A DNA stretch of 64,000 nucleotides, from the NCBI GenBank assembly GCA_964016885.1, contig OZ024753.1, positions 24,180,001 to 24,244,000 on the forward strand, given 5' to 3'. The position numbers and the translations under genes were made by a program. Of this stretch, positions 3,766-52,800 are shown piece by piece. Below the pieces are notes generated by a model. The model was not told the DNA's origin and made no database searches. It was given only the letters and a program-made list of their open reading frames with translations. Position 1 is the first letter of the stretch; each line of letters opens with the position of its first letter. Source of the stretch: Eledone cirrhosa. Its lineage: Eukaryota.

Positions 3766-3938
3766 TTTATTTCCATTTATTTAATATCATTGAATATCCA
3801 CTCCAGTAAACTGTTGAGTGCTCTAAATCAGTTATAAACATTTATATTTGTTGGACTTCCAACAAATTAAATACCTCTTCTACTTATAAATAGCTCCTTT
3901 AATGTTGAGCACTTTAAATTATAACTGATTGCTAAATA

Positions 3939-7098: not shown

Positions 7099-7199
7099 TA
7101 TTTATAAAACAAACTTTGTATTTTATCTGATGAAAGCGTATCAATGTGTCTTGGTACCCTTGAAATATATATAATAAAATAAATATGGTTTTATAAATA
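7099..7199 (+). ncRNA. Minimal type I hammerhead ribozyme (PLE-1 3' pLTR)
   Basis: Same sequence as the 5' copy: CTGATGA 7127-7133, GAAA 7162-7165. Confidence 0.85.
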
Positions 7200-20153: not shown

Positions 20154-20184
<31 letters not shown>

Positions 20185-20637
20185 TTCTTTATTAGCCACA
20201 AGGGCGCACAAGAAAAGGGGACAATACAAAGTCATGCCGGGGATTTTACATACAGTCGTGTAAAAAATATAAAAACAAACAATTACAACAATCGAAATCC
20301 CCAATAGGGGGAGGCGCCACAAATGGGTTGTTTAATACCCCGTCTATAGAACAACCCTCAACTCCAGGAGCGTGTTGTGCAAGTGGTCCTTTCTTCCTTT
20401 TGCTCTCTTCCTCAACCTACAGGCTTATAAACAGAGAAGGCCCAATCACTCGGGCCATTTTCGCTTCATTCACCCACCTTTCAGTAAATTTACTGGGGTG
20501 CAGTGCCTCTCTCTCCACCCTGATTCTCCTTCTATAGTGATACTTAAAGAAAGGAATCAATTGTTGTCCGGAGAGAAAGGCATCTGTCCTCAGTCCTCTC
20601 AAACTCGTCCACCATATAACTTCTTTCACCATAGCAC
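20185..20637 (-). mobile_element. Tx1/L1-clade LINE copy B, 3'-terminal fragment
   Basis: AMVKEVIWWTSLRGLRTD...RRIRVEREAL is homologous to the C-termini of copies A and C. Distinct 3'UTR. Confidence 0.85.
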
Positions 20638-20654
20638 AGATAGACAGATAGATA

Positions 20655-23600
20655 ACTTTCTTTATATTTGCCACCAGGGCATCAAGAGTGGGACAAGTAC
20701 AATGGGGGGGAGTTTACATAGCAAGGCGTCCTCAATATGGAGGAGGCAATAACAAAGTATAAAAATAAAATACAATATAACAAAATAAATTTTATAACAA
20801 AATCCTCCATACGGAGGAGGCGCCTTGGCGGGTCGCACCCACCCACGAAAAAAAGTGTGCAACCCTTCTCCTCAGGGGCACAGAGAGGGGGTGCTCCCTT
20901 GATCTTTCCTCTTCCTCACCTATAGTCTGATGTAGAGTGAAAGCCCATTCACACGGGCCATTCTCGCCACTTTCACCCATCTTTCATAAAAACGGCTGGG
21001 GTGCAGCACCTCTCTCTCCATCCTGATCCTTCTTCCGAAATGATATCGGAAGAAACGGACCAGTTGTTGGCCAAAGAGAAAGGTGTCTGACCTCAGTCCT
21101 TTCAGACGCGTACACCATACAACCTCTTTCGCCATGGCTATTACGCACAGAAACACCGCCTCTCCTTCGTTTTTGAAGAGGGGGGCGGCTTGATCGTTAA
21201 AATAGACTCGGTTGTCAACCGGATCGGTCCCACCCTTGACAGCAGTTGTTCGACATAGCCCCACAGATCGGTAATGCCCGAGCAGTGTACCAATGCGTGT
21301 GCAACGGTTTCCTCGTCGCACACGCATCTGGGACAGATCTTTTTCGAGGGGTCCCTACGCGGGCGCCCGTGTCTGTAGAGCCTTTCTCGAACGGGCAGAG
21401 CCCTTCGGTAGCACTGCCAGGCCAGGGACCTCTGGAAGTTATCCATGGGTCCCGATCTGAATGTCCTACCGAACAGGTTGGCCAGTTCGTCTTCCTCCAT
21501 GCCTAGGGCTTCTCCGAGGGCGTCGTCGCACCTGCTAACCACCAGCCCTCTATAGAATGACGAGGTGAATTCTCCACTGACAGCCGGGTCCGCCTGCCAA
21601 AGAGCCGTTAGCGCCTGGCACACCGAGTGTGCCCAGGCGCCCAGTTTTCTCGGTCTTTGCTTGACTCAGGATTGCAGCTCGGTAAGTGAGACGAGTCTGG
21701 GAAAGGCTCGCCTCACAAACGGGGCCCACACCGGTTGACCGGTGAGGAGTACATGGAGGTGCCGTAGCCTTAATGCGTGTTTACGTATCATTAGTTTAGG
21801 CATCCCCAGCCCTCCTTTCGAAGGGTGTTGACAGCAGATGGATCTCCTCACCATAGGAGCCCGTTTCTTCCAAAGGAATTGGAAGAGTGCGCGCTCCATT
21901 TTGGCGAGCGTTTCCGTTGGGCAGGGCACAACGGTCAGGCGGTAATAGATGACGGACGCTATATAAGTGTTCGCCACCTCAGCCCGACCTTTCAGGGACA
22001 GTTTGCACTCGGCCCACTTCTGGGTTAGTGCAAACACCCTGTTCGTTACCTCACCCCAGTTCTTCTCCACCTGGAGGTCTGGTCCGAACCAGACCCCAAG
22101 CAACTTCACCGGACCCTCTGTCCAGCGCCCGACGACGCCATCGGAGGGCATCGATCTGCCCCTCCACGTGCCGAGTTGCAGACCGATCGACTTGTCCCGG
22201 TTCAGCTTAGCCTCTGTAAACCTTTCGTACTCCTCCAGTAAGGTGCCGATCTCCCCGATTTCCGAGGCCGTCGACACCATTACTGTTACGTCGTCGGCGT
22301 AGGCCGACACTGCTTTCCGCAATCCATGTTCCAACGGGATGCCCTGCAACAACTCCCACTTCCGCAGCAGTGGCTCTAGAGTCATTACATACAGAAGGGA
22401 GGAGAGAGGGCACCCTTGTCGGATGGACTGCGCGATTTCGAACGGCTCCAAGAGGTAGCTGTTCACCTTGACCCTAGAGCAGATGCGGCTGCTGTGCATG
22501 GCATTGACCCAGCCCCTGAAAACGGGTCCGAAGCCTGCCGCCGCTAGCACCGCATCCGGGTAACCATGGTCGACCCTATCGAACGCCTTAGATTGATCCA
22601 AGTTGATCAGGGCCCAACCAAAACCGGGTTCGTTCCCAACCCTCTCTATGATGTATCGCATGAGGTGGAGGTTGTCGTGGATGGACCTGGACGGGATAGC
22701 ACATGTCTGCGCATCTCCCACCAGGTTGCCCACGACAAGCGCCAACCTCTTTGCTAGCACCTTGGCCAAAATCTGTAACTCTGTATTTAGCAGAGTTATG
22801 GGCCTGAAATTATTTATATCGTCTCCCTTGTTCTCGTCCTTCCTCACTAGCGTGACTACGCCCTTGGTCACAGCACAGGGAATTCTCCCGTTCTGTTGCC
22901 AGTTGCAGTAGACCGCCTCGAGGAGATCGGGGAACAAGTCCGGCATAGCTAGATACAGTTCGTATGGAAGGCCGGAGATTTGCGTTTGCCGCATTGGCTT
23001 AGTACGTCCTCTATCTCAGCGGCTGAAATCGGCTCCTCGCAGGACTTCGCCTCCCTGTCCGAGATACGCGGCAGGCCGTCGAGGTATGGACCAAAGTCCA
23101 CATCCTCAACTGGCTCCCCGCCCCTTCCGAACAATCCGGCAAAGTGCTTTTGAAAAGCCTCGCACATTTGCTTAGGTTCAAGGATCACCCGTCCATCCTG
23201 GTCTCGCAAAGACCGGATAGTGGATCTGCTCCCTCTTTTGGCTTCTGTCACGCGGGCCCAGCTAACAGCTTTGGTCCCCTCGTTTCCCAGAGCACGTATT
23301 TTGCTTCGGACGATGCAGCCTTCGTGTTTCGCGTCGAAGAACTGGCCCAGGGCCCTTCTCGACGCTAGCACTCTGGCCACGTCGCCGCTTCTAATTGCCT
23401 CTTCTACACTATCTACCAGCTCCCTTTCCTTCCTATTTCTATTTGTTGCTAACTCCTTACTAAATTCTATAGAGACTACTCTAATCTCTCTTTTGAGAGA
23501 TCCCCACCACCTGCTGTTGACGATGGCGCCCGTCAACCGCTCCTTAACTAAAGTGCTAATCCGGTTCCTGTAAGCCTTACTTGCCGGTAAGGACAAGTTG

Positions 23601-23842
23601 AGCTTCCAGTAACCGGGTCCCTGTCTATGCGTTCTGTCAAGGTTGACCATGCAGCTCACTAACTTGTGGTCTGAATAGCCAACCATGCTCATTTTTGGAC
23701 AACTTAAAAAGTCCTTATCCTTATTTCTAACTAAGAACCTATCTAGGTACGACCTAGATGATCCGCTGATATTTGCCCAAGTCCAGGTTGGCGCAGTCGG
23801 AAAATCTAGTCGATATCTATCGGCCAGATCAAATCGACCGAT
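20655..23842 (-). mobile_element. Tx1/L1-clade LINE copy C, 5'-truncated (APE C-terminal half + RT + zinc finger)
   Basis: TWTW..SRSYLDRFL..SDH..GPGYWKLN, FRPITLLN, DQSKAFD, AYADD, CPRC..ETVAHALVHC. Frameshifts and a stop at 21666. Confidence 0.93.
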
Positions 23843-24479
23843 TAGATAGATAGATAGATAGATAGATAGATTAAAAATAAAACTGAAATTGCTGTTACTA
23901 TTTAACCGTCGCAATTAACACACACACATACACACACATGGGGGGGGGGGTTATGTATGTGTACTTCTATTACACATACACACCATTATATTAACATACA
24001 CATACTTTTGCTCATAGCTTCGTACTTAACATGCACACACACACATTTTTTCTTAGCTTCGTACGGACGTATAATAACACACACACAAAGACACACACAT
24101 GCATTCGCACGTGCACAAGTATAGCTACTTATGAAAAACGGTTCTTTTTCCATTTCAGGTAGACGTGTTCCATCATCCACTTTTCTAAAAAAATAAATCA
24201 TACTCAAAACGCCAGCACCAACAGTTTCCAAGAGTTGTCAACATGAATGGACTTGTTATTTTTATCTAAAGAAATTTTTTCCAATTCCAACCGACCTGTC
24301 CCTTCAATCTATCTTATTTCTCATTCTTTCTTCTGATGATGGACTAGCGTCCAAAACTTTAAGGCCTTCTTCCTGCTATATCAAGCGTTAACCTAATATA
24401 TTCCTTCCATATACTGTACCAATTGAGTTGTTATTTCTGTTTACCTTTTACATACATATATATACATACACACACACAT

Positions 24480-25639: not shown

Positions 25640-28600
25640 ATAATAATAAATTTGAAGACTAAAATCCAAAGAGGGCTCGATAAGGATAAATATATATCAA
25701 ATATATAAGAACCGTAGAGCAAATTATCCTTATCGAGCCCTCTTTGGATTTTAGTCTTCAAATTTATTATTATTTCTATTTGGCTCCCTCGATTGAGCAC
25801 TCTATTGACTTATATTCATCATGCAGAAACAACATCTGAATATTTCTACAAAGAACATACCCGTACCAAGCAGGAAAACATACCTAAACTCCTGATACAG
25901 AAAACAGACGCGTTCATTAAAAGGTTGCGTTGGCGTGCCTTTTATTTCGATAATCCGCGAAAAGGACAACAAACAGGATAAATTTGGATTTAAAACCTAT
26001 AATAACACCCACCCACCCACCCACGTGTAACCCAGCATTGCTACCCTTCGAAAATGATGTCTTGGAACTCATACGGAGTATCAAATTTCGGAATAGGAGC
26101 AATTCCTTCCAGCAGGACCTGAAGAATAGAATTCGTTCTATTAAGGATTCTAATGCCGTGCACGTCCATTCCGAGAAAACTGGCAACCTATATCAAGTGG
26201 AGCGCAGTACTTACCATCAACTACTACATAATGCTGTAACTAAGGATTACCGTAAATCTAATCGGTGCGTCATCAATGAAATCAACGATGCTGGGTTTTA
26301 AATCACATCTGATCTCAACATCCTGGACCGGACCGAACCTCTGGACCCTTGTCTCCCCACTTTACCCTGAAGGATCACAAATCCAATTTTCCGAACAACC
26401 CCTCTATTCGGCTTATTAACCCTACGAAGTCCGATTTAGGTAGACTTAGTAAAACGATTCTTGATACCTGAAATTAGAAGTTTGGCCCCTCTTGCACTGT
26501 GGAACAATTCTTTCGCGGTGATTGATTGGTTCAACGGCATATGGAACAAGGAACATTGCCGTTTTATCCAATTCGACATCAACAATTACTACTCCTCCAT
26601 CACTTTACCACTTCTCCTTAGAGCTATCAATTTCGCTAAAACACTCACAGTTGTTAAGGATTTCGAAGTTGATCTCATCCTCAATGCCCGCAAGTCGGTG
26701 ATTAATTTCGACGACTCTATTTGGATGAAAAAATCCCATAGTACCCCATTCGACGTGAGTATGGGCGCCAGCGATTCTGCGGAGGTTACTGATCTTATCG
26801 GCCTTTTCCTTCTTTTCTCTATCAAGGACGAATTCCCCAACGCGGGCGGTGGTTTGTACCGTGATGATGGTCTTTTGACCATGACTAAGTGCGGACCTCG
26901 TGCTTGCGATAGGTTCAGAAAAGAACTCACAGCCTTCTTTAAAGGCTTCAACCTCTCTATACAGGTTGAGGCCAATCTCTCGGTCGTTAATTACCTCGAC
27001 GTTACCCTCAATTTATCGAATGGGTTGTATTACCCGCATAGAAAGCCGAATGATACGCTTAATTACATAAGTAGGCATTCCAACCATCCTGCCAGCATAA
27101 CCAAGAACCTGGTAAGAAACGTTTCGTTGAGGCTTTCCCGTCTATCTACTAACGAGCATATTTTCAACGACCATTCCACTTATTACAATGAAGCTCTTGC
27201 TCGGAGTGGATTTGTCGATAAGGTAGCATATACAGAGTACGAAAATAGACCTAGAAGAAATAGATCCCGTCGCATTTGTTGGTATTACCCACCATATAAT
27301 ATGGAGGTGGCCACACCATTAGCTAAGATTTTTCTTTCCCTTATTACGAAGCATTTTCCCCCTACACATAAATATAGTAACATTTTTAATAGAAATACTA
27401 TTAAAATTTCTTACTCTACGACTCCTAACCTTGCACATAACATCACAGCTTCAAATTTAGCTAAACTACCTAGCCGTAGAAACACGTGCAACCCTGTAGT
27501 TAGTACTAACTGTAATTGTAGGAATCGGGTTGAATGCCCCCTATCCGGGAAATGCCTCTCTAGTAACATTGTCTACAAATGTAAGGTTGAAACACCCACG
27601 TCCCGTAGGGCCTACATAGGGTTAACCGCCAATAGATTCAAGCAGCGTCTTTACATGCATACCCATTCTTTTCGTTACCCTCTGAGAAGGAATATGACGT
27701 CACTTTCAGCTTATATCTGGAGTCTAAAAGACAACCACACCCAATATAAGTTACACTTGGAGATCCTAGCTAGGGCTAGATCGTATAACGGAAATATAAG
27801 ACCATGTGACCTCTGCGCCGCTGAGGCCCTGGAATTAATCTACGCCACAGACCACATCTTAAACTAAAAATCTGAGGCAATTTCGGCTTGTAAACATAAA
27901 TTGCACAAAACTTTCCTGTATTACAGCCCCACGTTATACCCTAACGGATAGTACGATCTATACGTGGATATTTTACGTCTTGATGTGGTAGCTAAGTATA
28001 TGTTTTGTTTATACCAATTACTTAGTTGCATAGGTAAGTATATATTACCTGTATGTTTGGTGAAGGTACGTATACTCTCTCGTACGTATATTTGATTGTA
28101 TATGTTATGGCGTATAATTTTTTATATATTCTGGTACATATGGTTTGGTTATGTGTATACGGGAGTTTTGCGTCTGTGTGAGTATGCAGGTTCGTACGTA
28201 TGTAGGATGCATGTATATGTGTACTTCATGTTTTGGTTGACTTACGTCTCCGAACATTTGTGTATTTACATGTAGGTATGTGTGTGCGCTTGTTATATAC
28301 GTATTTATTTATTTATATACGTTTATTTAATTAATTATTTATTTGTATGCACGCACACACACACACACACACACATATTTATATGTGCTTGGTTTTGTAT
28401 ACCTACGGGGAGTGTTTTCGCATATGCTTGTGTATGTACGTATTTGTATGCGTGTATGTATTTATTTAATGTCTATTACCTCTGTATTGTATTTATTTAC
28501 TTTATTCTTAACTTCGAAGCGGAGATTCATTCGGTCTCCTAGTTAGAATTTTAGTCTACGACTTCTGCTATACCATTTACGTGGTTTTGTCTTTGCGTAC

Positions 28601-28970: not shown

Positions 28971-29080
28971 ATATATATATATATATATATATACGTAGGT
29001 CCCGGGTTGAGTCAGGGATAACCACAGTAAGTAAGGTACTCAATACATGGCAGAGTAAAATATATTTATTGTATAGAAGG

Positions 29081-29131
29081 AGCTTCTACAGGACTAGTAC
29101 TGTTTCATTCAGATGAAATCTTCAGGAAGCT
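29081..29131 (-). ncRNA. Type I hammerhead ribozyme (PLE-3 pLTR)
   Basis: Minus strand: agcttc-CTGAAGA-tttc atct gaat-GAAA-cag tactagtc ctg-TA-gaagct. Confidence 0.85.
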
Positions 29132-29678
29132 GGGTGTCATATTAAGTTCTGGTATTTATACATTTAGATTTAGGTAGTGGTAAGGGAGGGGTGGTGGCTG
29201 GGGGGGGGGGGGGTAGGATGGTATTTAGATACACAGGACCACAACATGGCACAGGCCGTTTTTTCTTTGAGGTGTGGTCAATTAGCCAGAGTGCTTTTGT
29301 AAAATAAAATGAAAAGAAAAAGTAAATAAGTAAATAAATAAATAAATAAATGAATAAATAGATAAATGAATAAATAAATAAATAAAAATGAATAAAAAAT
29401 AAATAAATAAATAAAAACCCCAGGAATAGTAATTCAACAGATATATAGTAGGGAAACTTTTTTAGGTGGGTTGGTATTAGAAGATAAACAAGACCGAATC
29501 ATGGCACAGACTGAGGTGAGTGGTCAAGTTAACATACAAGCTACAGGTGGCCAGAGTGTTTTTGTAGAATGGAAGGAATAAAATATATTTACATACTCAC
29601 AACCACATACATAAATACTTACACACACATATACATGTATATACACATATACATACACATACATATATATACACATAG

Positions 29679-29724
<46 letters not shown>

Positions 29725-30130
29725 ACATATACATGCACACACGCATACATACACATACACATACAAATACATACACATAAACACATATACACATACACGC
29801 ACTCGTTCGCACACATACATGTATCTATAATATATTGGGAAAAAGTAGTGGGACAAATTATAAACTGAGCCTGATAGAGGATTAAAATAATTATTACCAC
29901 TACTAAGTTATTAATATTATCATCAAGTAATTAATTACTATTTATTATTTACCATTCACTATTCATTACCTATCTTTTATCTTTTATCTATTCATTACTT
30001 AATCATTCACTTATTAATTAATAAATAAATGAGTTAACTAACACATAAACAAACAGATAAACAAATAAACAAATAAATAAATAAATAAATAAATAAATAG
30101 ATAAATAAATAAATAAATAAATAAAATAAC

Positions 30131-30181
<51 letters not shown>

Positions 30182-30423
30182 ATCTCGAACGTGTGCGTGC
30201 AGCAGTTCATAACTGCACGTATGCAAACATGAGCAGATATATACGTGAATTTGTGTGTGCGGCCACGGAACCTTACTCAGAGGCATACAACACAATATAT
30301 AAGACCTGGAGGGGAGGAAAGAAGGTAATAATGAGAGATAGAGGGGAGGAAAGAAGGTAATAATGAGAGATGGAGGGACGGAAGTGGGATGGGGTACGGG
30401 GGTGGGGTGGTGATATGGGGGGG

Positions 30424-31874
30424 TCAATCGGGGGGCCGGGTGGGTCTGTAGTTTCTGTAATTTGCATGGTTCTTGTGCATGCAATTAGGGGAGTGTTCCG
30501 AGATCTTGTTGAGGAGAGGGCCTTTGGCGAATAGAATCTCATAGCTCTCGGAGATACAGAGGTCACAGCAATTATGGCCTCCCGTGTAGGATCGCGCTCT
30601 CTGGAGTAGTCTCCATTGGGTCTTGAAGGGGATGGAGTTCCTTTTAAGGTGCCAGATGTGGGCGGCGAGTGTTGTTTGGTTAGATTTGTCTGGGCGCCGG
30701 AACGAATGTGTGTGGGCGTACCAGCAAGTCTTAAAACTGTTAGAAGTCATCCCGATGTACGCGTTTCTTTTTTCATCGGGGCCTGAGAGTACATCGCATA
30801 TATAGACGAGATCTTTTTTTAAGACAGTTGTTGTTGAGGGGGCAGGTAGTCTTATCAGGGCAATTGCAATTGCCATCGGTTGCTGGATGGGCTTCGGAAA
30901 AAGTAGACTTATTTAACTTCTTGACGTTATTGTTGGCTAAGTTCCTAGCCAGATTATGTGTGGTTGAGTAAGAGAGTCTAATGGTATTCTTATTAAGGAT
31001 TGTATAGTACCTGTGTTGGGTGGGGAAGTGTTTTGTAAGAGAGTGAAGAAAATTTTAGCTACAGGTGTTGAAACTTCGCGGTTGAAGGGGGGGGGGTTGT
31101 ACCAGCTAATGTGCCTTCGCCTATTCTTCCTGGGTGGACGTGGGGCTATACTAAGGTAGGTGATCTTATCTCTAAAGCCGCTGCGCTGCCAGGGCCTCGT
31201 TGTAATAGGGGTTGCTGCTCTAAAGATATCTTCATTGGCGGCGAGGCTAGATATCCTAATGGAGACACTTTTCACTAGGTTGTCTAATATATTTTTGGGG
31301 TGGTTAGAATTAACGTCTATATATCTAAGGGATTCATTAGGTTTGTGGTACGGGTAATAAAGGGAAGTTTCTAAGTCGAGGGTAACGTCTAGGAAGTTAG
31401 CTTTAGTTAAGTTCGAATCTAAGGTAATCCTAAGGCCTAAGTTTTTAAAGAAGGTGTAAAGGTTTTTCCTGAACCATTCCGTGGTCCTGGGGTTGATTTT
31501 GTGGAGGGCAAAGAGGCCGTCATCTCGGTAGAGACCGCCGGAGAGGCCTGTGAAGAGGGTCTTCAACCTGAGGAGGATGAACAGACCCACAAGGTCACTT
31601 ATTTCAGCTGAGTCGCTAGCACCGATGCTAACGTCGAAGGGGGTCTCAGATTTTTTGTTGATCCAGTGGGATCTGTCATGGTAAAGAAAAGTCTTACGTG
31701 CATGGAGGATCACATCCTGCTCGGCTTCGGTGATTGTGGTAAAGTTCCTGGCGAAGTTAATCGCGTCAATCAGCAGGCTCTCTGATATGCAGGCGTAGTA
31801 GTCCTCGATGTCTAGCTGCAGGAAGCGGGTGTTGCTTTTGTCGGGAAAGTCCCGGAACCATGTGATTGCCTCCA
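30424..31874 (-). pseudogene. PLE-3 RT C-terminal half + GIY-YIG
   Basis: LQLDIEDYY, GASDSAE, LYRDD, FLDVTL, NHP, VYIC..AYIGMTSNSFK..H, CDLC. Frameshifted. Confidence 0.9.
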
Positions 31875-32626
31875 TACACATACACACATACAAATACATA
31901 CACATAAACACATATACACATACACGCACTCGTTCGCACACATACATGTATCTATAATATATTGGGAAAAAGTAGTGGGACAAATTATAAACTGAGCCTG
32001 ATAGAGGATTAAAATAATTATTATCACTACTAAGTTATTAATATTATCATCAAGTAATTAATTACTATTTATTATTTACCATTCACTATTCATTACCTAT
32101 CTTTTATCTATTCATTACTTAATCATTCACTTATTAATTAATTAATAAATGAGTTAACTAACAAACAAACAAACAAACAGATAAACAAATAAACAAATAA
32201 ATAAATAAATAAATAAATATTTTATTTATTTATTTATTTATCTATTTATTTATTTATTTATTTATTTATTTGTTTATTTGTTTATCTGTTTGTTTGTTTG
32301 TTTGTTAGTTAACTCATTTATTTATTAATTAATAAGTGAATGATTAAGTAATGAATAGATAAAAGATAAAAGATAGGTAATGAATAGTGAATGGTAAATA
32401 ATAAATAGTAATTAATTACTTGATGATAATATTAATAACTTAGTAGTGATAATAATTATGTTAATCCTCTATCAGGCTCAGTTTATAATTAGTCCCACTA
32501 CTTTTTCCCAATATATTATAAATACATGTATGTGTGCGAACGAGTGCGTGTATGTGTATATGTGTTTATGTGTATGTATTTGTATGTGTGTATCTGTATG
32601 TATGCGTGTGTGCATGTATATGTGTA

Positions 32627-32723
<97 letters not shown>

Positions 32724-33043
32724 GTGTATATATATGTATGTGTATGTATATGTGTATATATATATATGTATATGTGTGTATATATGTGTTTGTGTGTATG
32801 TATGAGTATGTATGTATGTGTGTGTATATGTATGTATATGTATGTATAGTATAGTTTATACCGAGAGACATACATACATGTATGTGTATATATATATGTG
32901 TATATATATATGTGTATATGCACGTGTGTATGTGTAGATATGTATGTATATGTATATATATATATATATGAGTGTATGCATATATATGTGTGTGTATGTG
33001 TATGCGTGTGTGTGTGTATATTTGTGTGTATGTGCTTTTTTCT

Positions 33044-33122
<79 letters not shown>

Positions 33123-33648
33123 ATATATATGCATAGATATGCATATATATATATATGTGTGTGTAAGTGTTTATGTATGTGGTTGTGAGTAAATATATTT
33201 TATTCTTTCCATTCTACAAAAACACTCTGGCCACCTGTAGCTTGTATGTTAACTTGACCACTCACCTCAGTCTGTGCCATGATTCGGTCTTGTTTATCTT
33301 CTAATACCAACCCACCTAAAAAAGTTTCCCTACTATATATCTGTTGAATTACTATTCCTGGGGTTTTTATTTATTTATTTATTTTTATTTATTTGTATTT
33401 ATTTATTTATTCATTTATCTATTTATTCATTTATTTATTTATTTATTTACTTATTTACTTTTTCTTTTTCTTTTCCTTTTATTTTACAAAAGCACTCTGG
33501 CTAATTGACCACTCCTCAAAGAAAAAACGGCCTGTGCCATGTTGTGGTCCTGTGTATCTAAATACCATCCTACCCCCCCCCCCCCCCGCCACCACCCCTC
33601 CCTTACCCCTACCTAAATGTACAAATACCAGAACTTAATATGACACCC

Positions 33649-33699
33649 AGCTTCCTGAAGATTTCATCTGAATGAAACAGTACTAGTCCTGTTGAAGCT
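33649..33699 (+). ncRNA. Type I hammerhead ribozyme (PLE-3 inverted copy)
   Basis: agcttc-CTGAAGA-tttcatctgaat-GAAA-cag tactagtc ctg-TT-gaagct. Confidence 0.8.
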
Positions 33700-33715
33700 C
33701 CTTCTATACAATAAA

Positions 33716-33845
<130 letters not shown>

Positions 33846-40551: not shown

Positions 40552-42520
40552 TTAATCCAGGTGCCTTGTCTCTCTGGGCGAATATCTGTCGGCTTTAGCC
40601 CTCAAAGCGAATGTCAGAGGTTTGTGGTCGGTTAAAACAGTAAAATTTCGCCCCTCAAGAATATGAGAGAAATGTTTCACCGACACAAATATATGGCTAA
40701 TAATTCCCGCCCAAACGTGCTGTAACACATTTCTGCTTGTTTTAGCTTCCTTGAGAAAAATGCCAAAGGTTGTTGGTTTCCAGCGTTGTACTGCTGTAAA
40801 ACTGCTCCCACAGCAGTATCAGATGCATCAACACAAAGCGAAAGCTTGGCCTCTGGTACCGGGTGGGCTAGCAAAGATGAACTAGCGAGTGGTGTCTTGG
40901 CAGTCTGGAAGTATTTAAGCTGTCCTTGTGTCAAGGAAATATCCTCATTCTTCTTACGACGATTTTTCAAAATGTCAGTAAGGGAAGATAGCAAATTAGC
41001 ACAATCAGGAACGAAACGCCTATAGAAATTGATTAGGCCTAAGAACTGGTGAAGTGTAGTAGGCGGAGGTAAATCCTGTATGGTTTGAACTCGCCGAGGG
41101 AGCGGCCTAATACCTTCGGCGTCCATGAGGTGGCCTAAAAAATTTAGCGAATTGGAACCGAAAACACACTTTGCGGGATTCACACGAACGCGGTAATCCT
41201 GAAGTCGCCGAAATAAGAGATGCATGTGGCGCATATGCTCTTCCGGAGAGGAACTAGCGACGAGAATATCGTCTATGTATGCATAAACGAAGTCAAGACC
41301 ACGAGTGACTTCGTCTATGAACCGCTGAAAAGTGCTAGCGGGGTTCCTGAGTCCGAAAAGCATGGTAAAAAATTTGAAGGATCTGAAAGGAGTTGTAATC
41401 GCCGTTTTCGGAATATCCTCCTTCCTGACCGGAATTTGGTGGTAGGCTCGCACTAAATCTAGTTTTGAGAAAATCTTACACCCCTGAAATGAAGGTGCGA
41501 AATCCTGGAGATGGGGAATGGGATACCTATCCGGGACGGTCATAGCATTTAACCTCCTATAATCCCAATGGGTCTTCAGTCGCCAGAAGTCTTGGGCACC
41601 ATGTGTAACGGTGAAGCCCAAGGACTCGTAGATGGGCAAATAATGCCCAGCTGCAGAATACGGTCGAGCTCGGACTGTGCTGCCTTTAATTTGTCCGCCG
41701 GTAAGCGGCGTGGACGCGAAAACACTGGAGCACCGGTGGTGGAAATGAAATGTTCAGTTGAGTGTGTTGGCTCAGTGACTCGAAAATTTCCATCGGTGAG
41801 GTCCGGGAAAGAACCTAACAACGAATGGTAGGCGTCTCCAGTGGCAGCGATGAAGAATATGGGGCTGACTGTTGGAGCATTGGCTTTCCGGACACGAATT
41901 GAAAAACCGGTGATGTCATCCACCAGGCGTTGGCCACGGACGTCTACAGTCAAAGGGAAGTTGTGGAGGCAATCCGCTCCTGAGATAGGGTATGGCAAAT
42001 CGGCAACCGTAAAAATTCACTTAAAATCCCTACGAAGATTTAGGAATTTGAGAGGAAGCGAGATTTGTCCGTACGTCTTTATAGACGAGTGATTAACGGC
42101 ATACAGAGTAACGGATGACTCCACGGGGGTATCTTTCAGGCAATGGACCAGCAAAATACTACAGGAGGCTCTTGTATCCACGAGAAAACCTCTTCCCGAC
42201 ATAAGGTCCTTAATGAAGAAATGGCGGTTTGGTGGCTTTTTGTTGAGGTCAACTGCCCCATCAGCGGACGTCTTTGGCGTTTCCCGCCTTATGAAACGAG
42301 CAAGGTTGTACGCAGTGGTTCGCGCTCTCGGCAAATCGCTCATGGTACCAGCATAAAGATGAAGCTGGTGATTTGGGGCGGCGTCTAAAAGATTGAGATC
42401 TCCCGCGGCTGCGCGGGCGCGAACGGACACCACACCAGACCTTCATCTTCTGGAGCTCCAGGGTGAGTTCCTGAATGGACTTCTGCATCGCCATAATGGC
42501 TGAGTGAGATGCCATTGTTA
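40552..42520 (-). mobile_element. Ty3/Gypsy internal fragment (gag end, protease, RT, RNase H), degraded, no LTRs seen
   Basis: LCWYHERF..C (gag), FLVDTRASCS (PR), [30 protein letters not shown] (RT), DASD...RELLAIY...TDHKPL (RH). Confidence 0.9.
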
Positions 42521-43564: not shown

Positions 43565-45791
43565 TGTGTATTATCTGTGTTTTGTATGAGGTCCTAGATG
43601 TATGGATTACCTGCTTGTGTTGTCTGCGGTACTAGAAGTATGTATTACCTCCTTGTGTGTTGCATGTGGTGCCAGATGTGTGTATTACTTGATGGTGTGT
43701 TGTATGTGGTCCTACATGTATGTATTATCTGCTTGTGTGTTGTATGTGGCCCTAGATGTGTGTATTACCTGCTTGTGTGTTGTATATGGTCCTAGATGTG
43801 TGGATTACCTCCTGGTAGGTTGTATGCTGTCCTAGATGTGTGTATTACCTGCTTGTGTGTTGTATGTGGTCCTAGATGTGTGTATTACCTCCTTGTATGT
43901 TGTATGTGGTCCTAGATGTATGTATGTATTACCTCCTTGTGTGTTGTATGTGGTCCTAGATGTACGTATTACCTGCTGGTGTGTTGTATGTGGTCCTAGA
44001 TGCATGTATTACCTGCTGGGATGTTGTATGTGGTCCTAGATGTATGTATTACCTGCTTGTGTGTTGTATGTGGTCCTAGATGTGTGTATTACATCCTTGT
44101 GTGTTGTATGTGGTCCTAGATGTATGTATTACCTCCTTGTGTGTTGTATGTGGTCCTATATGTATGTATTACCTGCGGGTGTGTTGTATGTGGTCCTAGA
44201 TGTGTGTATTACATCCTTGTGTGTTGTATGTCGTCCTAGATGTGTGTATTACCTGCTGGTGTGTTATATGTGGCCCTAAATGTGTGTATTACATCCTTGT
44301 GTGTTGTATGTGGTCCTAGATGTATGTACTACCTGCTTGTGTGTTGTATGTGGTCCTAGATGTGTGTATTACCTGTTTGTGTGTTTTATGTGGTCCTAGA
44401 TGTATGTATTACCTACTTGTGTGTTGTATGTGGTCCTAGATGTGTGTATTACCTTCTTGTGTGTTGTATGTCGTCCTAGATGTATGTATTACCTACTTGT
44501 GTGTTGTATGTGGTCCTAGATGTGTGTATTAACTTCTTGTGTGTTGTATGTCGTCCTAGATATGTGTATTACCTCCTTGTGTGTTGTATGTCGTCATAGA
44601 TGTATGTATTACCTGCTTGTGTGTTGTATGTTGTGCTAGATGTGTGTATTACCTCCTTGTGTGTTGTATGTGGTCCTAGATGTATGTATGTATTACCTCC
44701 TTGTGTGTTGTATGTGGTCCTAGATGTATGTATTACCTGCTGGTGTGTTGTATGTGGTCCTAGATGTATGTATTACCTGCTTGTGTGTTGTATGTCGTCC
44801 TAGATGTATGTATTACATCCTTGTGTGGTGTATGTGGTCCTAGATGTGTGTATTACCTGCTTGTGTGTTGTATGTGGTCCTAGATGTGTGTATTACCTGC
44901 TTGTGTGTTGTATGTGGTCCTAGATGTGTGTATTACCTGCTAGTGTGTTGTATGTGGTCCTAGATATATGTATTACCTGCTCGTGTGTTGTATGTGGTCC
45001 TAGATGTGTGTATTACCTGCTTGTGTGTTGTATGTGGTCCTAGATCTATGTATTACCTCATTGTGTGTTGTATGTGGTCCTATATATATGTATTACCTGC
45101 TTGTGTGTTGTATGTGGTCCTAGATGTATGTATTGCCTCCTTGTGTGTGGTATGTGATCCTAGATGTGTGTATTACCTGCTTGTGTGTTATATGTGGTCC
45201 TAGGTGTGTGTATTACCTGCTTCTGTGTTGTATGTCATCCTAGATGTATGTATTACCTACTTGTATGTTATATGTGGTCCTAGATGCGTGTATTACATCC
45301 TTGTGTGTTGTATGTGGTCCTAGATGTATGTATTATCTGCTTGTGTGTTGTATGTGGTCCTAGATGTGTGTATTGCATCCTTGTATGTTTGATGTGGTCC
45401 TAGATGTGTGTATTACATCCTTGTGTGTTGTATGTGGTCCTAGATGTGTGCATTACCTGCTGGTGTGTTGTATGTGGTCCTAGATGTGTGTATTACCTCC
45501 TTTTTTGTTGTATGTGGTTCTAGATGTGTATATTACCTGCTTGTGTGTTGCATGTAGTCCTAGATGTGTGTGTTCTAGATGTATGTATTACCTACTCGTG
45601 TGTTTTATGTGGCCCTAGATGTGTGTATTACATCCTTGTGTGTTATATGTGGTCCTAGATGTGTGTATTATCTCCTTGTGTGCTGTATGTGATCCTAGAT
45701 GTGTGTATTACCTCCTTGTTTGTTGCATGTTGTCCTAGATATGTGTATTACCTGCTGGTGTGTTGTATGTGGTCCTAGATGTGTGTATTAC

Positions 45792-48700
45792 TAGAGGATT
45801 ATATATCATTGTGTGACGCTATGCAAAACATGTTATAGTGTTCTGATATTATTCATTCCTAATAGTGCTTTTCATCTGTTTCAGATGTCCATCATTTATT
45901 GATACAAATAAAGTGGATGTATTATGAAAAGAGTTCGTGCTTATGAGGGACAGCGTCAATTCATACTTTACAGAGAAGTTATTCTAAGACCAAAGTTTAT
46001 TTATAGGTGAAATTTGAATTTGTGCCCGCAACCGTTAAGATTTCGTTTTGTATAATTTAATGTGAAAGATGCCTACAGTGAAGTGCCCTATCCCACACTG
46101 TGATTTTGAGACAGAAGACTTCGATCCTGTAGGGATCGCTGCACTGCTGACTGCAAAATCAACAGTCTACACTACAACCCCCAGCATCTCTGCCAAAGTC
46201 GAACGGGTCAAGCGGCCTAGCGTCTCCTCCGTAGGTACAAGCGAGGACTGGTGCTACTTCATCTCAAGATGGACGGATTACGTCGAGGCAACCAAAGTCA
46301 CAGGTAAAGACCTCATTGTACAACTCCTTGAGTGCTGTGACGAGACACTACGTAGATACTTAACAAGATCCGCTGGTGGCACACTGACAGACAAAACCCA
46401 AGCTGATGTCCTCAAGGCCATTCGAGTCCTTGCTGTCCGAGAGGAAAACACCATGGCTTCTCGCGTCACTCTTCGGAGCATGACACAGGGCCATGACGAG
46501 TCTGTCCGCTCATTTGGTGCTAGACTTAGGGGACAAGCAGTTGTCTGCAAATTTGTCACAGCATGTCCGGGCTGCCATCCGGAAGTGAACTATACTGAGG
46601 CAATCCTTCGTGACGTACTCACTCGTGGACGTAATGACTCTGAAATCCAGCTTGACCTCCTCGGAGATAAAAACCAGGATATGAGCCTCGGGGAAGTATT
46701 TAAATATGTTGAAGCTAAGGAGGCCTACTTGATTCCCAGGGTGCCCAGGCTATCGGCAGTAGCTACCATCGTAACAAGAAGACCCCACCAGACCACCCCA
46801 AGGGATCAGACCTCCAGAAAGAGACCTGCATCTATTGCGGTAAGAGAGGACATGGCACACGAGCACCACCAAGGGTCCGAGGTAAGGAGTGTACTGCGTA
46901 CGGCCACACATGCTCCTACTGTTCCAGATAAAACCATTTTTAGTCAGCTTGTTGCAGCAAGGACAGATCCAAGCGGGAAGTGCCTCCAAGACCTATAGAG
47001 AACACGAGGGTGCCATCTTTGATTCCCTATGCGCAGCAAGTCATTTAGTATACAAGCGAGATCACAAGTCCATAACCTTGGGCCACCACATACACGATCA
47101 ACTATCAGATACATGGTCAAGGCAGTCATCTCAACCTCAACCCTTTATCCAACTGACAATGAAGGTCCTACATGAAGATTACCATCAACTCGGCTTTGGA
47201 CACATCCTCAAATCCAAACCCAAGACTCTTTGCCATTGCTGATACAGGCTGCCAGAGCTGTCTTGCCGAGGTGAAGGTCTTGCACAAGCTTGGACTCAAC
47301 ACCTCTGACCTCATCCCAGTAACACTGAGGATGCTGCGAACAATAAAGGCATCCCCATCCTTGGAGCCATCATTGTTCGCCTTTCAGCTCAAGACTCCAC
47401 TGGTGAACTGATCGAATCTCGCCAACTTGTATACATCACAGACAACTCAGACAAGTTCTTCCTCAGTAAAGAGGGATGCATCTCACTTGGGATGATCACA
47501 GATAACTTTCCAACTATCAGCGTGGCCAGTGGTAGTGTGAATGCAGCTGCATCCTCAGGTGACAACCAAACACATCAATTACAGGACCAAGACAAGGTGG
47601 AAGGTGAATGCCCAAGACGAACACTGCCACCACCCCTGCCAACCAAATTACCCTACCCTGCAAGAGAGGAAAATCGCAAGGAATTTGAGCGGCTACCTTC
47701 TTGATTGGTACAAATCAAGCACGTTCAATACCTGCGAACACCAACCCCTTCCCCTTATGGAGCCCCCCCCCCTATGAAACTGATGGTGGATCCCAACGCC
47801 ACACCTATAGCTCAATACACTCCAATACCCGTGCCGCTCCACTGGCGAGAAGCAGTCAAGGCCAGCGTCGACCAAGATGTCCAACTGGGTATGATCGAAC
47901 CTGTACCAGTTGGCGAACCTGTCACTTGGTGCCATAGGATGGTTGTCTGCCCAAAGAAAAATGGTAAACCCCGCCGCACCGTGAATTTCCAGGCTCTCAA
48001 CGCCCATGCAATAAGGGAGACCCATCACACACAATCCCCATTCCACCAAGCACGCTCGGTACCATCAGACAAGAAGAAAACTGTATTCGATGCCTGGAAC
48101 GGCTACCACAGTATACCAATTCGTGACGAAGCCAAACACTTAACCACATTCATCACGCCATGGGGAAGATACCGCTACCTGACTGCCCCCCAAGGCTACA
48201 TTGCGTCAGGTGATGGATACACAAGGAGATTCGATGAGATCATCTCTGACGTACAGAACAAGACTAAATGCGTCGACGACACCTTGCTGTGATCTGACAA
48301 CATTGAAGATAGCTTCTTCCGTGCCTGCGAATGGCCAGACCTCTGCGGCAGAAACGGAATAACCTTAAACCCAGAGAAATTTGTCTTTGCCAAGGACACA
48401 GTCGAATTTGCAGGCTTTGAGATCACATGCAACAGCGTCAACCGTGCAAAAAATACCTCCAGGCTATCATTGACTTCTCCACACCAACCAACATCTCCGA
48501 CATGCGCTCTTGGTTTGGTCTCATCAATCAAGTCTCCTACGCCTTCAGCATGGCCGACAGGATGCAACCATTCCGCAAGCTACTGAAACCAGGAACACCA
48601 GTCCAATGGAATGACCAGCTGGACAAACTCTTTGAAGAATCTAAGAGTGTGATTGTCAGTGATATAGAAGAGGGTGTACGCATATTTGACACCAGAAAAC

Positions 48701-49396
48701 CTACATGTTTCGCCACTGACTGGTCGAAAGACGGCATTGGATTCTGGCTGTTCCAGAAACACTGCACATCACCAAAGACAGTCCCATTTTGCTGTTGTGA
48801 AGGATGGTTACACTGGTCGGAAGTCGCTTCACCCAAGCGGCAGAATCACGATACGCACCGGTTGAAGGCGAGGCTCTCGCTGACGCACTGGACAAGGCAA
48901 GGTATTTCATTCTGGGCTGCACCAACCTCACCATAGCGGTAGACCACAAACCACTACTCAAGATATTCAGTGATCAATCCCTGGAAAGGATTTCCAATAC
49001 TCGTCTTCGCAACTTGAAGGAAAAGATTTTCCGCTACAGCTTCAAGATGATCCATATTCCCGGGGCAAGACACGGAGCTGCTGATGCTGTATCTCGACAC
49101 CCATGTGACCCTGGAGACAAGATGATTCTAGAGGATTCAGCAGCCATCAGTATCTCCAGCCAACCATCTATTCAGAAACTCGTACTCGCCACCAAAAGAT
49201 ATGGTGACCAACCAGATAACCCAATCGAAGGGTCTACCTTCCTCTCAGCCGTGTCATCCATCAACTCACTACAATCAATCACTTGGCACAAGGTTCAAGA
49301 AGCCACCAACAGATGAAAAGCACTATTAGGAATAAATAGTATCAGAATGCTATAACATGTTTTGCATATCGTCACACAATGATATATAATCCTATA
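45792..49396 (+). mobile_element. Gypsy-derived element (gag-PR-RT-RH, no integrase) bounded by 89-bp terminal inverted repeats and an ATTAC TSD
   Basis: TIRs at 45792-45880 and 49308-49396. ATTAC at 45787-45791 and 49397-49401. Confidence 0.88.
46069..49310 (+). pseudogene. Ty3/Gypsy gag-pol, frameshifted, truncated after RNase H
   Basis: Gag MPTVKCPIPHC... with zinc knuckle CIYCGKRGHG, protease IADTGCQSC, RT FDAWNGYHSI..APQGY..CVDDTL, RH ATDWSKDG..VDHKPL. Confidence 0.92.
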
Positions 49397-49840
49397 ATTA
49401 CCTCCTTGAGTTGTATGTGATCCTAGATGTGTGTATTACCTGCTTGTGTCTTGTATGTGGTCCTATATGTGTATTTTAGCTGGTTATGTGTTGTATGTGG
49501 TCCTAGATGTGTGTATTACCTGCTTGTGTGTTGTATGTAGTCCTAGATGTGTGTATTACCTCCTTGTGTGTTGTATGTGGTCCTAGATGTGTGTATTACC
49601 TCCTTGTATGCTGTATGTGGTCCTAGATGTGTGTATTACCTGCTTGTGTGTTGTATGTGGTCATAGATGTGTGTATTACCTGCTTGTGTGTTGTATATGG
49701 TCCTAGATGTGTCTATTACCTGCTTGTGTGTTGTATGTGGTCCTAGATGTGTGTATTACCTGCTTGTGTGTTGTATGTGGTCCTAGATGTGTGTATTACA
49801 TGCTTGTGTGTTGTATGTGGTCCTAGGTGTGTATTACCTG

Positions 49841-52800
49841 ATAATGTATTTTATTTATTCCTCTTTTCCTTTTTCTTAAGTTTGTAAAACAATAAAATAA
49901 AACTACCTTTGTAATGGTATTCACACAACTGTGAATAAAATCGTAATTGACAATATGCATTGAATGAAGATTGTGTTACACTTTCTTCTGTAATCAGTAA
50001 AGTAATCCATGATACATTTTAAAAAGATGTTATTTTATTTAAACGGCGTTACGGCAAAATGTCATTAAAATGATATAACGAACGCTAACGGAAGTGTTGA
50101 CATTTGAAAATTTTAACAGAAATTAATCTTAAAATAAGAATACATTATATATAAGAATATTTGTTTAATTAAGAGCTTTAATTAAGATAAATTACATAAT
50201 ATTCATTCATGATTTATTCAAAGTAACCCAACTTATTTTAATAGCATGTTCAGAAAAAATAACCCCGACACAGTCTCGCAGTCATCCAACCATTAGATGG
50301 ATTTTAAACTTCATTGATGTCTACCAATGAATATTACGAATGTACTCAACTTTATTTACGGGAAGAACATAATTGTATGTCTTATGTTGCTAGCTTTGGA
50401 TACTGTAGCAGTTGAAGATATGATTGATGGGTAAATTTATAGAAAAGCACCTGTTGGAGTTCGGTAGGACATGTTTTTTTCTACGTTTATTCGCGTGTTT
50501 TTAACTAATCTTAAGTCGGTAATGCTCTTAATCACCTTTTTGGGTGGGGTGGGGGCTCAAATTTTTTGTAGAAATTGATTTCTTTTCTAAGTTTTTTTTT
50601 TTTTCGTTTGTTTACAACCGATCTGACATCAGATTCACCAGCCAACGACTCCTTTTTTCGAAAATGGAAGTGGGGAGAGAAGAGCACCTCTCAGGCGTTT
50701 AAATTTTTAGAAAAGCACCCGCTGGGGTTAGGACCACATACAACACACAAGCAAATTGTGTTGTATGTGGTCCTAGACGTGTGTATTACCTTCTTGTGTG
50801 TTGTATATGTCCTAGATGTATGTATTTCCTGCTTGTGTGTTGTATGTGGTCCTAGATGTGTGTATTAACTTCTTGGGTGTTGTATGTCGTCCTAGATGTG
50901 TGTATTACCTCCTTGTGTGTTGTATGTCGTCCTAGATGTATGTATTACCTGCATGTGTGTTGTATGTGGTCCTTGTGTGTTGTATGTGGTCCTATATGTA
51001 TGTATTACCTGCGGGTGTGTTGTATGTGGTCCTATATGTGTGTATTACCTCCTTGTGTGTTGCATGTGGTCCTATATGTATGTATTACCTGCTGGTGTGT
51101 TGTATGTGGTCCTAGATGTGTGTATTACCTGCTGGTGTGTTGTATGTGGTCCTATATGTGTGTATTACCTGCTTGTGTGTTGTATGTGGTCCTAGATGTA
51201 TGTATTACCTGCTGGTGTGTTGTATGTGGTCCTAGATGTGTGTATTACCTGCTTGTGTGCTGTATGTGGTCCTAGATGTGTGTACTACCTGCTTGTGTGT
51301 TGTATGTGGTCCTAGATGTGTGTATTACCTCCTTATGTGTTGTATGTGGTCCTAGATGTGTGTATTACCTCCTTGTGTGTTGTATGTGGTCCTAGATGTG
51401 TGTATTACCTCCTTGTGTGTTGTATGTGGTCCTAGATGTGTGTATTACCTCCTTGTGTGTTGTATGTGGTCCTAGATCTGTGTATAATCTGCTTGTGTGT
51501 TGTATGTAGTCCTAGATGTATGTATTACCTGCTTGTGTGTTGTATGTTGTACTAGATTTGTGTATTACCTGCTTGTGTGTTGCATGTGGTCCTAGATGTG
51601 TGTATTACATCCTTGTGTGTTTTATGTGGTCCTAGATGTGTGCATTACCTGCTTGTGTGTTGTATGTTGTCCTAGATGTATGTATTACCTGCTTGTGTGT
51701 TGCATGTGGTCCTAGATGTGTGTATTACATCCTTGTGTGTTTTGTATGGTCCTAGATGTGTGTATTACCTGCTTGTGTGTTGTATGTGGTCCTATATGTG
51801 TATATTAGCTGGTTATGTGTTGTATGTGGTCCTAGATGTGTGTATTACCTGCTTGTGTGTTGTATGTAGTCCTAGATGTGTGTATTACCTCCTTGTGTGT
51901 TGTATGTGGTCCTAGATGTGTGTATTACCTCCTTGTATGTTGTATGTGGTCCTAGATGTGTGTATTACCTGCTTATGTGTTGTATGTGATCCTAGATGTG
52001 TGTATTACCTGCTTGTGTGTTGTATGTGGTCCTAGATGTGTCTATTACCTGCCTGTGTGTTGTATGTGGTCCTAGATGTGTGTATTACCTGCTTGTGTGT
52101 TGTATGTGGTCCTAGATGTGTGTATTACATGCTTGTGTGTTGTATGTGGTCCTAGGTGTGTATTACCTGATAATGTATTTTATTTATTACTCTTTTCCTT
52201 AAGTTTGTAAAACAATAAAATAAAACTACCTTTGTAATGGTATTCACACAACTGTGAATAAAACCGTAATTGACAATATGCATTGAATGAAGATTGTGTT
52301 ACACTTTCTTCTGTAATCAGTAAAGTACTCCATGATACATTTTAAAAAGATGTTATTTTATTTAAACGGTGTTACGGCAAAATGTCATGAAAATGATATA
52401 ACGAACGTTAACGGAAGTGTTGACATTTGAAAGTTTTAACAGAAATTAATCTTAAAATAAGAATACATTATATATAAGAATATTTGTTTAATTAAGAGCT
52501 TTAATTAAGATAAATTACATAATATTCATTCATGATTTATTCAAAGTAACCCAACTTATTTTAATAGCATGTTCAGAAAAAATAACCCCGACACAGTCTC
52601 GCAGTCATCCAACCATTAGATGGAATTTAAACTTCATTGATGTCTACCAAGGAATATTACGAATGTACTCAACTTTATTTACGGGAAGAACATAATTGTA
52701 TGTCTTATGTTGCTAGTATTGGATACTGTAGCAGTTGAAGATATGATTGATGGGTAAATTTATAGAAAAGCACCTGTTGGAGTTCGGTAGGACATGTTTT

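Follow-up and report, generated by a model that had tools for sequence, protein, structure and literature searches.

The markers of the Mag cluster of Gypsy elements, and the GRV-type C-terminal module of Hydra2-1, are set out by Llorens et al. 2009 (PMC2774666, supplement table AF3A). A second described system is that of Tf1, whose RNA primes its own reverse transcription and adopts a three-duplex fold (10.1101/2022.12.06.519325, PMC4600332, PMC6317226); self-complementarity of at least 10 nt has been used as a criterion for such priming (PMC6317226), and the copied PBS is retained at the 3' end in about half of Tf1 cDNA (PMC11042837). In the literature surveyed, tRNA-independent self-priming is assigned only to Tf1/sushi, Tcn1 and TAR elements. 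Inversions are also reported for HIV-1: among the distinct proviruses, 2 carry them, at 1.3% in each of two classes (PMC9278108). Finally, the chain of events by which an LTR retrotransposon would become a DNA transposon with terminal inverted repeats (TIRs) is called unclear by Bao et al. (PMC2836005).

The element described here is present in one copy within a 64-kb stretch of DNA (the window), and its features are listed in Table 1. It is probably a Mag-like Ty3/Gypsy copy that has decayed and lacks integrase. Its right end is an inverted, second left end, which likely arose a single time in the course of reverse transcription, and the product was then likely inserted by the integrase of its parent acting in trans. 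A function for the locus is unlikely, as it would be a one-off, dead copy.

Table 1. Features of the element and its satellite flanks, in window coordinates.
Feature	Position	Strand	Basis
40-bp satellite array, left flank	43576..45791	+	TRF, monomer scan
Left 5-bp target-site duplication (TSD), ATTAC	45787..45791	+	Relatives also make 5-bp TSDs
5' LTR, ~152 nt, TAGA...CTTA	45792..45943	+	Alignment with L001 LTR and clade motif TA|TG; end position putative
Predicted U3 (91 nt), bases 1-89 = left arm	45792..45882	+	Putative boundary from Inr-like TTTC|A and start of self-primer arm
Predicted RNA 5' end and self-primer, decayed	45883..45895	+	10/13 complementary to 45943-45955; exact in relatives
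AATAAA, likely polyadenylation signal in R	45907..45912	+	Sequence
PBS-position complement of self-primer, no tRNA PBS	45943..45955	+	Comparison with relatives
gag, broken, two zinc-finger arrays	46069..46990	+	71% identical to P0001 aa 1-219
Aspartic protease (DTG), frameshifted	47163..47560	+	Weak Pfam match, E 0.096; P0001 alignment
Reverse transcriptase, broken	47705..48440	+	RVT_1 E 5e-7; at most 83-84% identical to relatives
RNase H and RH-IN linker, cut ~50 aa before integrase zinc finger	48440..49312	+	Domain scan, P0001 alignment
AACAG microhomology, common to pol and inverted U3	49308..49312	.	Junction alignment
Inverted U3 bases 1-89 = right arm	49308..49396	-	Arm comparison
Right 5-bp TSD, ATTAC	49397..49401	+	Sequence
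40-bp satellite, right flank, orientation and phase as left	49397..49840	+	TRF, monomer scan

The coding region has the order gag, protease (PR), reverse transcriptase (RT) and RNase H (RH), with an RT of the Gypsy type, which marks a Ty3/Gypsy origin, and both gag zinc-finger arrays are visible when stops are read as X. Ty3 Gag-Pol is the best solved-structure match of the family profile. Together, the four domains correspond to aa 1-1122 of the relative P0001 (1659 aa), in which the integrase lies further on (H2C2 from aa 1175, rve from aa 1245). Thus, the window copy is without integrase, PPT and direct 3' LTR, as the preliminary description of the sequence had stated. The relatives, whose RTs are up to 83-84% identical, have everything expected of an intact element (two direct LTRs, a PPT and an integrase, which follows RH), and they make 5-bp TSDs. 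Protein searches did not find an integrase-bearing parent in the host, the best matches being 83-84% identical in RT and ~60% over the full RH-linker query; RT relatives in viral contigs came to 12 candidates, with 0 confirmed.

Portions of the relatives also carry the markers of the Mag cluster. Among 60 full-length relatives, 56 contain the long-spaced zinc-finger array, 58 the CCHC array, and 43 the GRV (GxV/I) C-terminal module that is also present in Hydra2-1; a chromodomain was absent in both of the two full-length relatives scanned for it. Their LTRs start with TAG in 15/15 cases and end with TA in 14/15. A side result is thus a Mag-like clade of animal Gypsy elements, placed by markers, with TA...TA ends and predicted self-priming.

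The LTR of the sister element L001 starts TAGAGGAT right after its PPT, and the window arm starts likewise. At the other boundary, the preliminary description had drawn an LTR-like segment that ends with TTACA at 45972. This position was rejected on the alignment with the L001 LTR and the clade end motif, and the likely end is instead 45943 (CTTA|TGA). The same description had noted that no intact TGG-PBS is present; this is correct for the window copy, but the absence is a trait of the whole clade rather than damage. At the PBS position, 48 of 59 relatives contain an exact complement, 10-18 nt long, to the predicted RNA 5' end, as in the Tf1 type (at least 10 nt, the start of R against the sequence just after the 5' LTR). 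The complement reaches at least 12 nt in 36/59, compared with shuffle means of 6.8-8.1, although the 59 include many near-identical copies from few assemblies and are not independent. A Tf1-like, three-stem fold is found in 10/10 hand-picked relatives (z -1.7 to -6.1) and also in L001. The lineage of the relatives is thus predicted, from sequence comparison, to prime reverse transcription without a tRNA, as Tf1 does. The window copy's own primer duplex has decayed to 10/13 pairs and no longer folds in the self-priming way (z -0.69), and its U3/R border is a putative placement.

The inverted repeat reported earlier is genuine: its two arms match at 83/89 bases (blastn E 6e-33), and an arm 22-mer occurs 2 times in the 64-kb window but never in 100 shuffles. 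On either side the repeat is bounded exactly by ATTAC (45787-45791 and 49397-49401), and in silico excision of the element restores one 40-bp satellite monomer, in phase, which bears out the earlier claim that ATTAC was duplicated from a single monomer. The length of the duplication falls within the 4-6 bp of Ty3/Gypsy TSDs. Among the relatives, the 5-bp TSDs are exact in 11/15 and have one mismatch in 4/15; that of L080 is likewise ATTAC. Because a tandem array can mimic a TSD, this argument required a control. Two copies could have inserted in opposite orientation at the same satellite phase, with a later deletion that fused the RH of the first to the U3 of the second; ATTAC recurs in every monomer of the 40-bp array, L080 indicates that it is a real target of the clade, and opposite LTRs have been proposed as a source of TIRs by Bao et al. 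(PMC2836005). Such a history is quite unlikely. The probability that two independent insertions share a phase is ~0.045, based on the targets of 15 relatives, and must be multiplied by one half for orientation; the family looks low-copy, with 1-7 contigs per site over the element; and a break would again be required at the U3/R border. A comparison of left and right satellite monomers did not tell one insertion from two. The earlier argument that the TSD places the inverted structure before insertion is favored by the clade-type length of 5 bp and by the ~0.045 chance of same-phase mimicry in a tandem array. A post-insertion fold-back duplication was also rejected: it would have inverted the flank as well, but the satellite on the right runs in direct orientation and keeps its phase. 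The element contains no PstI, SbfI or EcoRI sites, and an Rfam search of the 64-kb window gave no match.

Divergence of the body is 3.1% (57/1824 and 54/1764 letters, from 8 listed pieces each of contig sets X2 and X3, compared with other copies). The arm divergence, 6/89, fits arms that were identical at insertion and that each aged like the body (P(>=6)=0.48), and it is at odds with an artefact of copying, for which an error of 0.5% gives P 6e-6. An assembly artefact within the satellite array might be suspected from the tandem-repeat location and from the lack of an independent read across the junction among the matches listed. However, the six arm differences (arm versus arm, 89 sites) are mostly transitions, both ends fall exactly at the clade LTR start with a duplication of the clade length (5 bp), and the sole N run of the window, at 435-634, is neither in nor near the element; an artefact is thus highly improbable. 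Contig sets X1-X4 (at most 2 samples) were mapped on 45752-49436, which includes 40-bp satellite flanks. Among the matches listed, the joint and loose-end tables contain satellite rows and one internal deletion. Contigs share an end at 49286, which stops 22 nt before the junction and is uninformative about it. In organism B, every contig has a different letter from the window at many sites, and the sample may lack this very copy.

The AACAG overlap between pol and the right arm, also reported earlier, proves to be authentic. In the pol frame it supplies an Asn codon, and its last two bases open a Ser codon; Ser is present at the equivalent place in 42 of the 45 motif-matching, full-length relatives (60 examined). 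The arm corresponds to the predicted U3 of 91 nt with 2 nt missing, and the junction lies 2-7 nt from the predicted U3/R border. By a post hoc estimate, the coincidence has a chance of ~7% for any break in one LTR and of far less over the 5-kb element. A 5-nt microhomology is typical of microhomology-mediated end joining. This would fit an origin in which the host joined two cDNAs before integration, an LTR-to-RH piece and the left 84-89 bp of another, with no template switch by RT. Such joining would account equally well for the TSD and the two U3 ends; however, it does not explain why the second piece ends 2-7 nt from the predicted U3/R border, and it is considered unlikely.

The preferred origin, a two-U3, template-switch cDNA that was integrated in trans, had been one of two proposals in the preliminary description. 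It is well supported by the near identity of the arm to the predicted U3 and by the start of the arm, which is the L001 post-PPT start. In this pathway, the 5' end of the parent's own RNA would prime minus-strand synthesis, as in Tf1. The retained primer could then anneal to R in its minus-strand copy, so that the PPT-primed plus strand would stall at U3/R, and stalling at this border would free a "U3-only" strand. The 3' end of this strand, CTGTT, could pair with AACAG on a plus-sense strand (either a second RNA or growing plus DNA), and extension of both paired strands would generate a linear cDNA, both ends of which are PPT-defined U3 ends. Integrase would take both of them, the U3 and U5 ends of the clade being alike (TAGA/TCTA), and leave the 5-bp TSD. 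The product, having neither PPT, 3' R nor integrase, would be a dead end; it has since aged ~3%, and with its frames also broken, the window copy would have no means to propagate.

The other earlier proposal, a propagating, TIR-bounded gag-pol family, found no support and is very unlikely; such a family would be moved as DNA by integrase or a Ginger-like transposase in trans. The 89-bp terminal arms and the TSD do resemble those of a DNA transposon, and Ginger TIRs span 40-270 bp (PMC2836005). However, an inverted LTR is present in 0/57 relatives, compared with a direct repeat in 38 (L068 had been flagged as inverted due to a flanking tandem repeat), the ends are TA versus the TGTNR of Ginger, and the arms have drifted like the body. 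In organism B, U3 is covered only 2.6-2.8 times as deeply as the leader, a weak indication, since depth does not measure copy number. Excision from chromosomes is not known for Gypsy integrases, which also disfavors this proposal. An exact search of metagenomes for the arm gave 0 matches, as did an exact search of viral and genome contigs for the junction, in collections that are unlikely to include the host. In a literature search by title and abstract opening, which covered few subscription journals or repeat-database notes, neither an element with two U3 ends nor self-priming in a Mag-like animal clade was found.

Under the preferred origin, the locus represents a natural case in which an LTR element likely came by inverted, integrase-usable ends in one step, and it illustrates how ends like those of a DNA transposon could arise in a retrotransposon. 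Other inverted-end junctions should then be sought at the U3/R border. A broader possibility, which is quite doubtful, is that the shedding of U3-only plus strands is systematic in self-priming, Mag-like Gypsy elements, which would repeatedly make integration-competent, inverted-end cDNAs, the locus being one member of a mobilized TIR family. If so, a switch downstream of integrase would in a single step create an element that is bounded by TIRs and carries integrase, and this would supply the missing route from LTR retrotransposons to Ginger-like DNA transposons. The clade itself may matter more than the locus, being widespread in marine animals, with TA...TA ends and priming predicted to be independent of tRNA. 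Its elements would be drawn wrongly by annotation that insists on TG...CA ends and a tRNA PBS, and they would also be expected to evade silencing by tRNA fragments.

Several known systems come close to the element. Members of the Mag cluster (Hydra2-1, SPM, CFG1), like the relatives, have two gag zinc-finger arrays and an integrase after RH; the window copy differs from them in lacking integrase, PPT and direct 3' LTR and in ending with an inverted U3. In Mag A and Mag C the LTRs are TGT...ACA (PMC3601003, Table 3), whereas those of the relatives are TA...TA, with no tRNA PBS, and the Mag placement is made here by markers. The Tf1/sushi chromoviruses, Tcn1 and TAR (Copia) share with the relatives an RNA 5' end whose complement lies just past the 5' LTR, and a three-duplex fold. 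Unlike Tf1/sushi, the relatives are apparently non-chromoviral, animal elements with 11-18 nt arms and TA ends, and their self-priming is a prediction. Defective HIV-1 proviruses, among them ones that carry deletions, are inverted or have asymmetric LTRs, resemble the proposed origin in that template switching by RT yields rearranged cDNA that is still inserted by integrase, although none bounded by two U3 ends is described in the available text of PMC9278108. Ginger1 and Ginger2 have TIRs of similar length, a 4-5-bp TSD and Gypsy-related ends (PMC2836005), as does the window copy. However, according to the same source, Ginger has an integrase, no RT and TGTNR ends, whereas the window copy keeps gag-PR-RT-RH, has lost integrase, and contains no integrase-like transposase between its TIRs and no TGTNR termini. 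DIRS-1, like the window copy, has inverted terminal repeats around gag and RT-RH. DIRS elements are recognized by a tyrosine recombinase and the lack of a TSD; the window copy, in contrast, has a TSD, a protease and an RT of the integrase-bearing Gypsy type, and no tyrosine recombinase is present among the 8 ORFs scanned, all of which are accounted for by P0001 aa 1-1122.

The window is animal DNA with abundant simple repeats and retroelements, and one stretch of its 40-bp satellite carries a 3605-bp insert. The first 89 bases of the insert recur, inverted, as its last 89, with 83 positions identical. This inverted match ends exactly at ATTAC on both sides, beyond which the orientation and phase of the satellite are unchanged. 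Comparison of the sequences thus bears out the terminal inverted repeats and flanking ATTAC claimed in the preliminary description, and the inverted-end structure is real and unusual. The interior aligns, in broken frames, to amino acids (aa) 1-1122 of P0001, a 1659-aa gag-pol relative; coding sequence stops about 50 aa ahead of the P0001 integrase zinc finger (aa 1175), as expected of the gag-pol without integrase described earlier. A search of the window for further copies found none.

Features of the insert and other repeats in the window
Feature	Position	Strand	Detail
Insert	45792-49396		
Inverted arms	45792-45880, 49308-49396		
Frame shifts or stop codons	near 46725, 46980, 47225, 47330, 47690, 48290, 48440, 48800		
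Predicted transcription start	45883		by alignment with L001
Predicted LTR end	45943		by alignment with L001
AACAG	49308-49312		
Similar ORFs	3936-6159, 26440-27867		similar to those at 30424-32034
Non-LTR retrotransposon copies	18253-23914	-	decayed copies in tandem, sharing 82% identity across 1.9 kb; RVT_1 E 8e-25
Inverted repeat	29060-33720		750 bp, 91%; ORFs at 30424-32034 lie between its arms
Second, unrelated Gypsy RT-RH fragment	40677-41753	-	RVT_1 E 2e-28; no more than 26% identical to the clade described here
AT-rich unit	50432, 50700		33-nt direct repeat; precedes the hairpin
Hairpin	50729-50776		inverted part-monomer opening the next satellite array

The ORFs within the 750-bp inverted repeat look Penelope-like by eye; a Pfam scan of two of the ORFs of this appearance gave no match. 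The hairpin arrangement may resemble that of Helentron/HINE-type elements with internal tandem repeats.

Searches with the RT yielded 102 related loci. In a quick tree the window RT pairs with that of L001 (SH-aLRT 91). The LTR of this sister element begins TAGAGGAT directly 3' of its PPT and can be aligned along the left end of the window element; for this reason, the inverted arm is the U3 end of the element's own LTR. The upstream region is directly repeated in 38 of the 57 loci with enough sequence around gag. Fifteen loci that retain both LTRs and their flanks were picked by hand: in all of them the LTR starts with TAG, in 14 it ends with TA, and the insertions are bounded by 5-bp TSDs, 11 of them exact and four with a single mismatch (ATTAC in L080). 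Judged from these alignments, LTRs of this clade ordinarily start with TA. In the loci listed, a G-rich PPT typically precedes the 3' LTR. The accessible text of PMC8220671 gives TATA among the LTR end motifs of an annelid; TA...TA ends by themselves therefore have a published precedent. One of the 57 loci, L068, was flagged for an inverted LTR and rejected, the match being a flanking tandem repeat; its 3' LTR is cut after ~12 nt (7178-7190), probably by a post-insertion deletion in satellite, and is followed by a tandem repeat resembling the one on the left flank. The family carries the Mag-cluster markers listed in PMC2774666 and is, by these markers, Mag-like. The Mag lineage is described as common in molluscs (PMC6238403, in part), and the named protein matches come from bivalves, sea anemone, sea urchin and hagfish. 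Twenty-two loci of the clade (L081-L102) come from GTDB prokaryote genome bins and are most likely contaminating host DNA. Protein searches did not find the integrase-bearing parent in this host.

An intact TGG-PBS is indeed absent, as first described, but the relatives examined also lack one just 3' of the 5' LTR. There, the post-LTR sequence is instead the exact complement of an LTR-internal stretch, typically starting at an initiator-like TC|A. A scan of 59 loci in which gag is preceded by at least 260 nt gave a longest exact inverted match of at least 10 nt in 48 and at least 12 nt in 36, counts that overstate independence since many loci are near-identical copies; in 30 shuffles of each, the longest match averaged 6.8-8.1 nt and reached at most 9-13 nt. 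Arm sequences vary among families while pairing is kept, and a central duplex with inner stems is predicted by folding in 10 hand-picked leaders and L001. Exact self-primer/PBS duplexes of 11-18 nt, which differ between families of this marine-animal Gypsy clade (TA...TA ends, 5-bp TSDs), are present in the 5' LTR/leader of L007, L010, L012, L050, L051, L057, L079, L083, L087, L093 and others. Tf1-type self-priming is thus predicted in this clade, outside the chromoviruses. The accessible parts of PMC6317226 and PMC6934838 attribute self-priming to Tf1/sushi, Tcn1, TAR and fungal elements; a literature search mainly of open-access papers turned up no account of it in a Mag-like animal clade. 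In the window copy the self-primer complement after the LTR has decayed (10/13 paired), and the leader no longer folds as such a duplex.

Alignment with L001 ends the LTR upstream of position 45972, where an LTR-like segment had been thought to end. The predicted U3 is 91 nt and the arm corresponds to its bases 1-89, the junction lying 2-7 nt short of the predicted U3/R border, counting the 5-nt overlap. The AACAG microhomology noted earlier at the pol junction holds: it belongs to both partners, extending the arm and reading Asn plus the AG of Ser in pol, a Ser conserved in 42 of the 45 relatives that, among 60 examined, match the motif.

The reading that fits best, and is probable, is a dead, one-off insertion with two U3 ends, the aberrant-cDNA alternative of the preliminary description; with an end-joining variant included, a one-off two-U3 insertion is likely. 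The 5' end of a self-primed minus strand would consist of the primer, R bases 1-13; the strand would also carry the complement of these bases adjoining U3 and could therefore fold back on itself precisely at the U3/R border. According to the accessible text of PMC11042837, the copied PBS is kept on about half of Tf1 cDNA, and therefore the primer would often be retained. The PPT-primed plus strand would stall at the fold-back; once released, its 3' end could pair at AACAG of a plus-sense strand and extend, giving linear DNA bounded on both sides by a U3 end that the PPT defines. Integrase of that particle would then insert this DNA, duplicating 5 bp of target as usual. Template switching leading to rearranged yet integrated genomes is established in HIV-1 (PMC9278108, in part); a literature search turned up no paper on an element bounded by two U3 ends.

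Since tandem repeats are able to mimic a TSD, a target profile was drawn from 15 relatives. ATTAC is not specially favoured in it, and two independent insertions would share phase with a probability of 0.047 (0.045 without L080), which makes two fused insertions unlikely. The arms differ by 6.7% and the body differs from the listed organism B contigs by 3.1%, as would be expected of two copies identical at insertion, alike for one insertion or two of the same age; such divergence argues against an assembly copy, and an artefact is very improbable. At many sites the organism B contigs depart from the window, and that sample may therefore lack the window copy. The family is low-copy (each listed site is covered by 1-7 contigs of organism B; copies ~90% identical in organism A), and U3 depth is just 2.6-2.8 times leader depth, weak evidence against MITE-like amplification; the propagating TIR-bounded family also proposed at first is improbable.

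The one-off two-U3 insertion is of interest as a way of gaining inverted ends in a single step, a matter that the available part of PMC2836005 leaves open, and for the predicted self-priming clade that it brought to light. The insert works like an aberrant provirus and resembles a DNA transposon in appearance only; it fails the tests for membership of both Ginger and DIRS. The predicted leader fold of its relatives resembles that of Tf1 in the accessible parts of 10.1101/2022.12.06.519325 and PMC4600332. The LTRs of Mag A and Mag C, as given in the available text of PMC3601003, are TGT...ACA, unlike the TA ends of the present clade.
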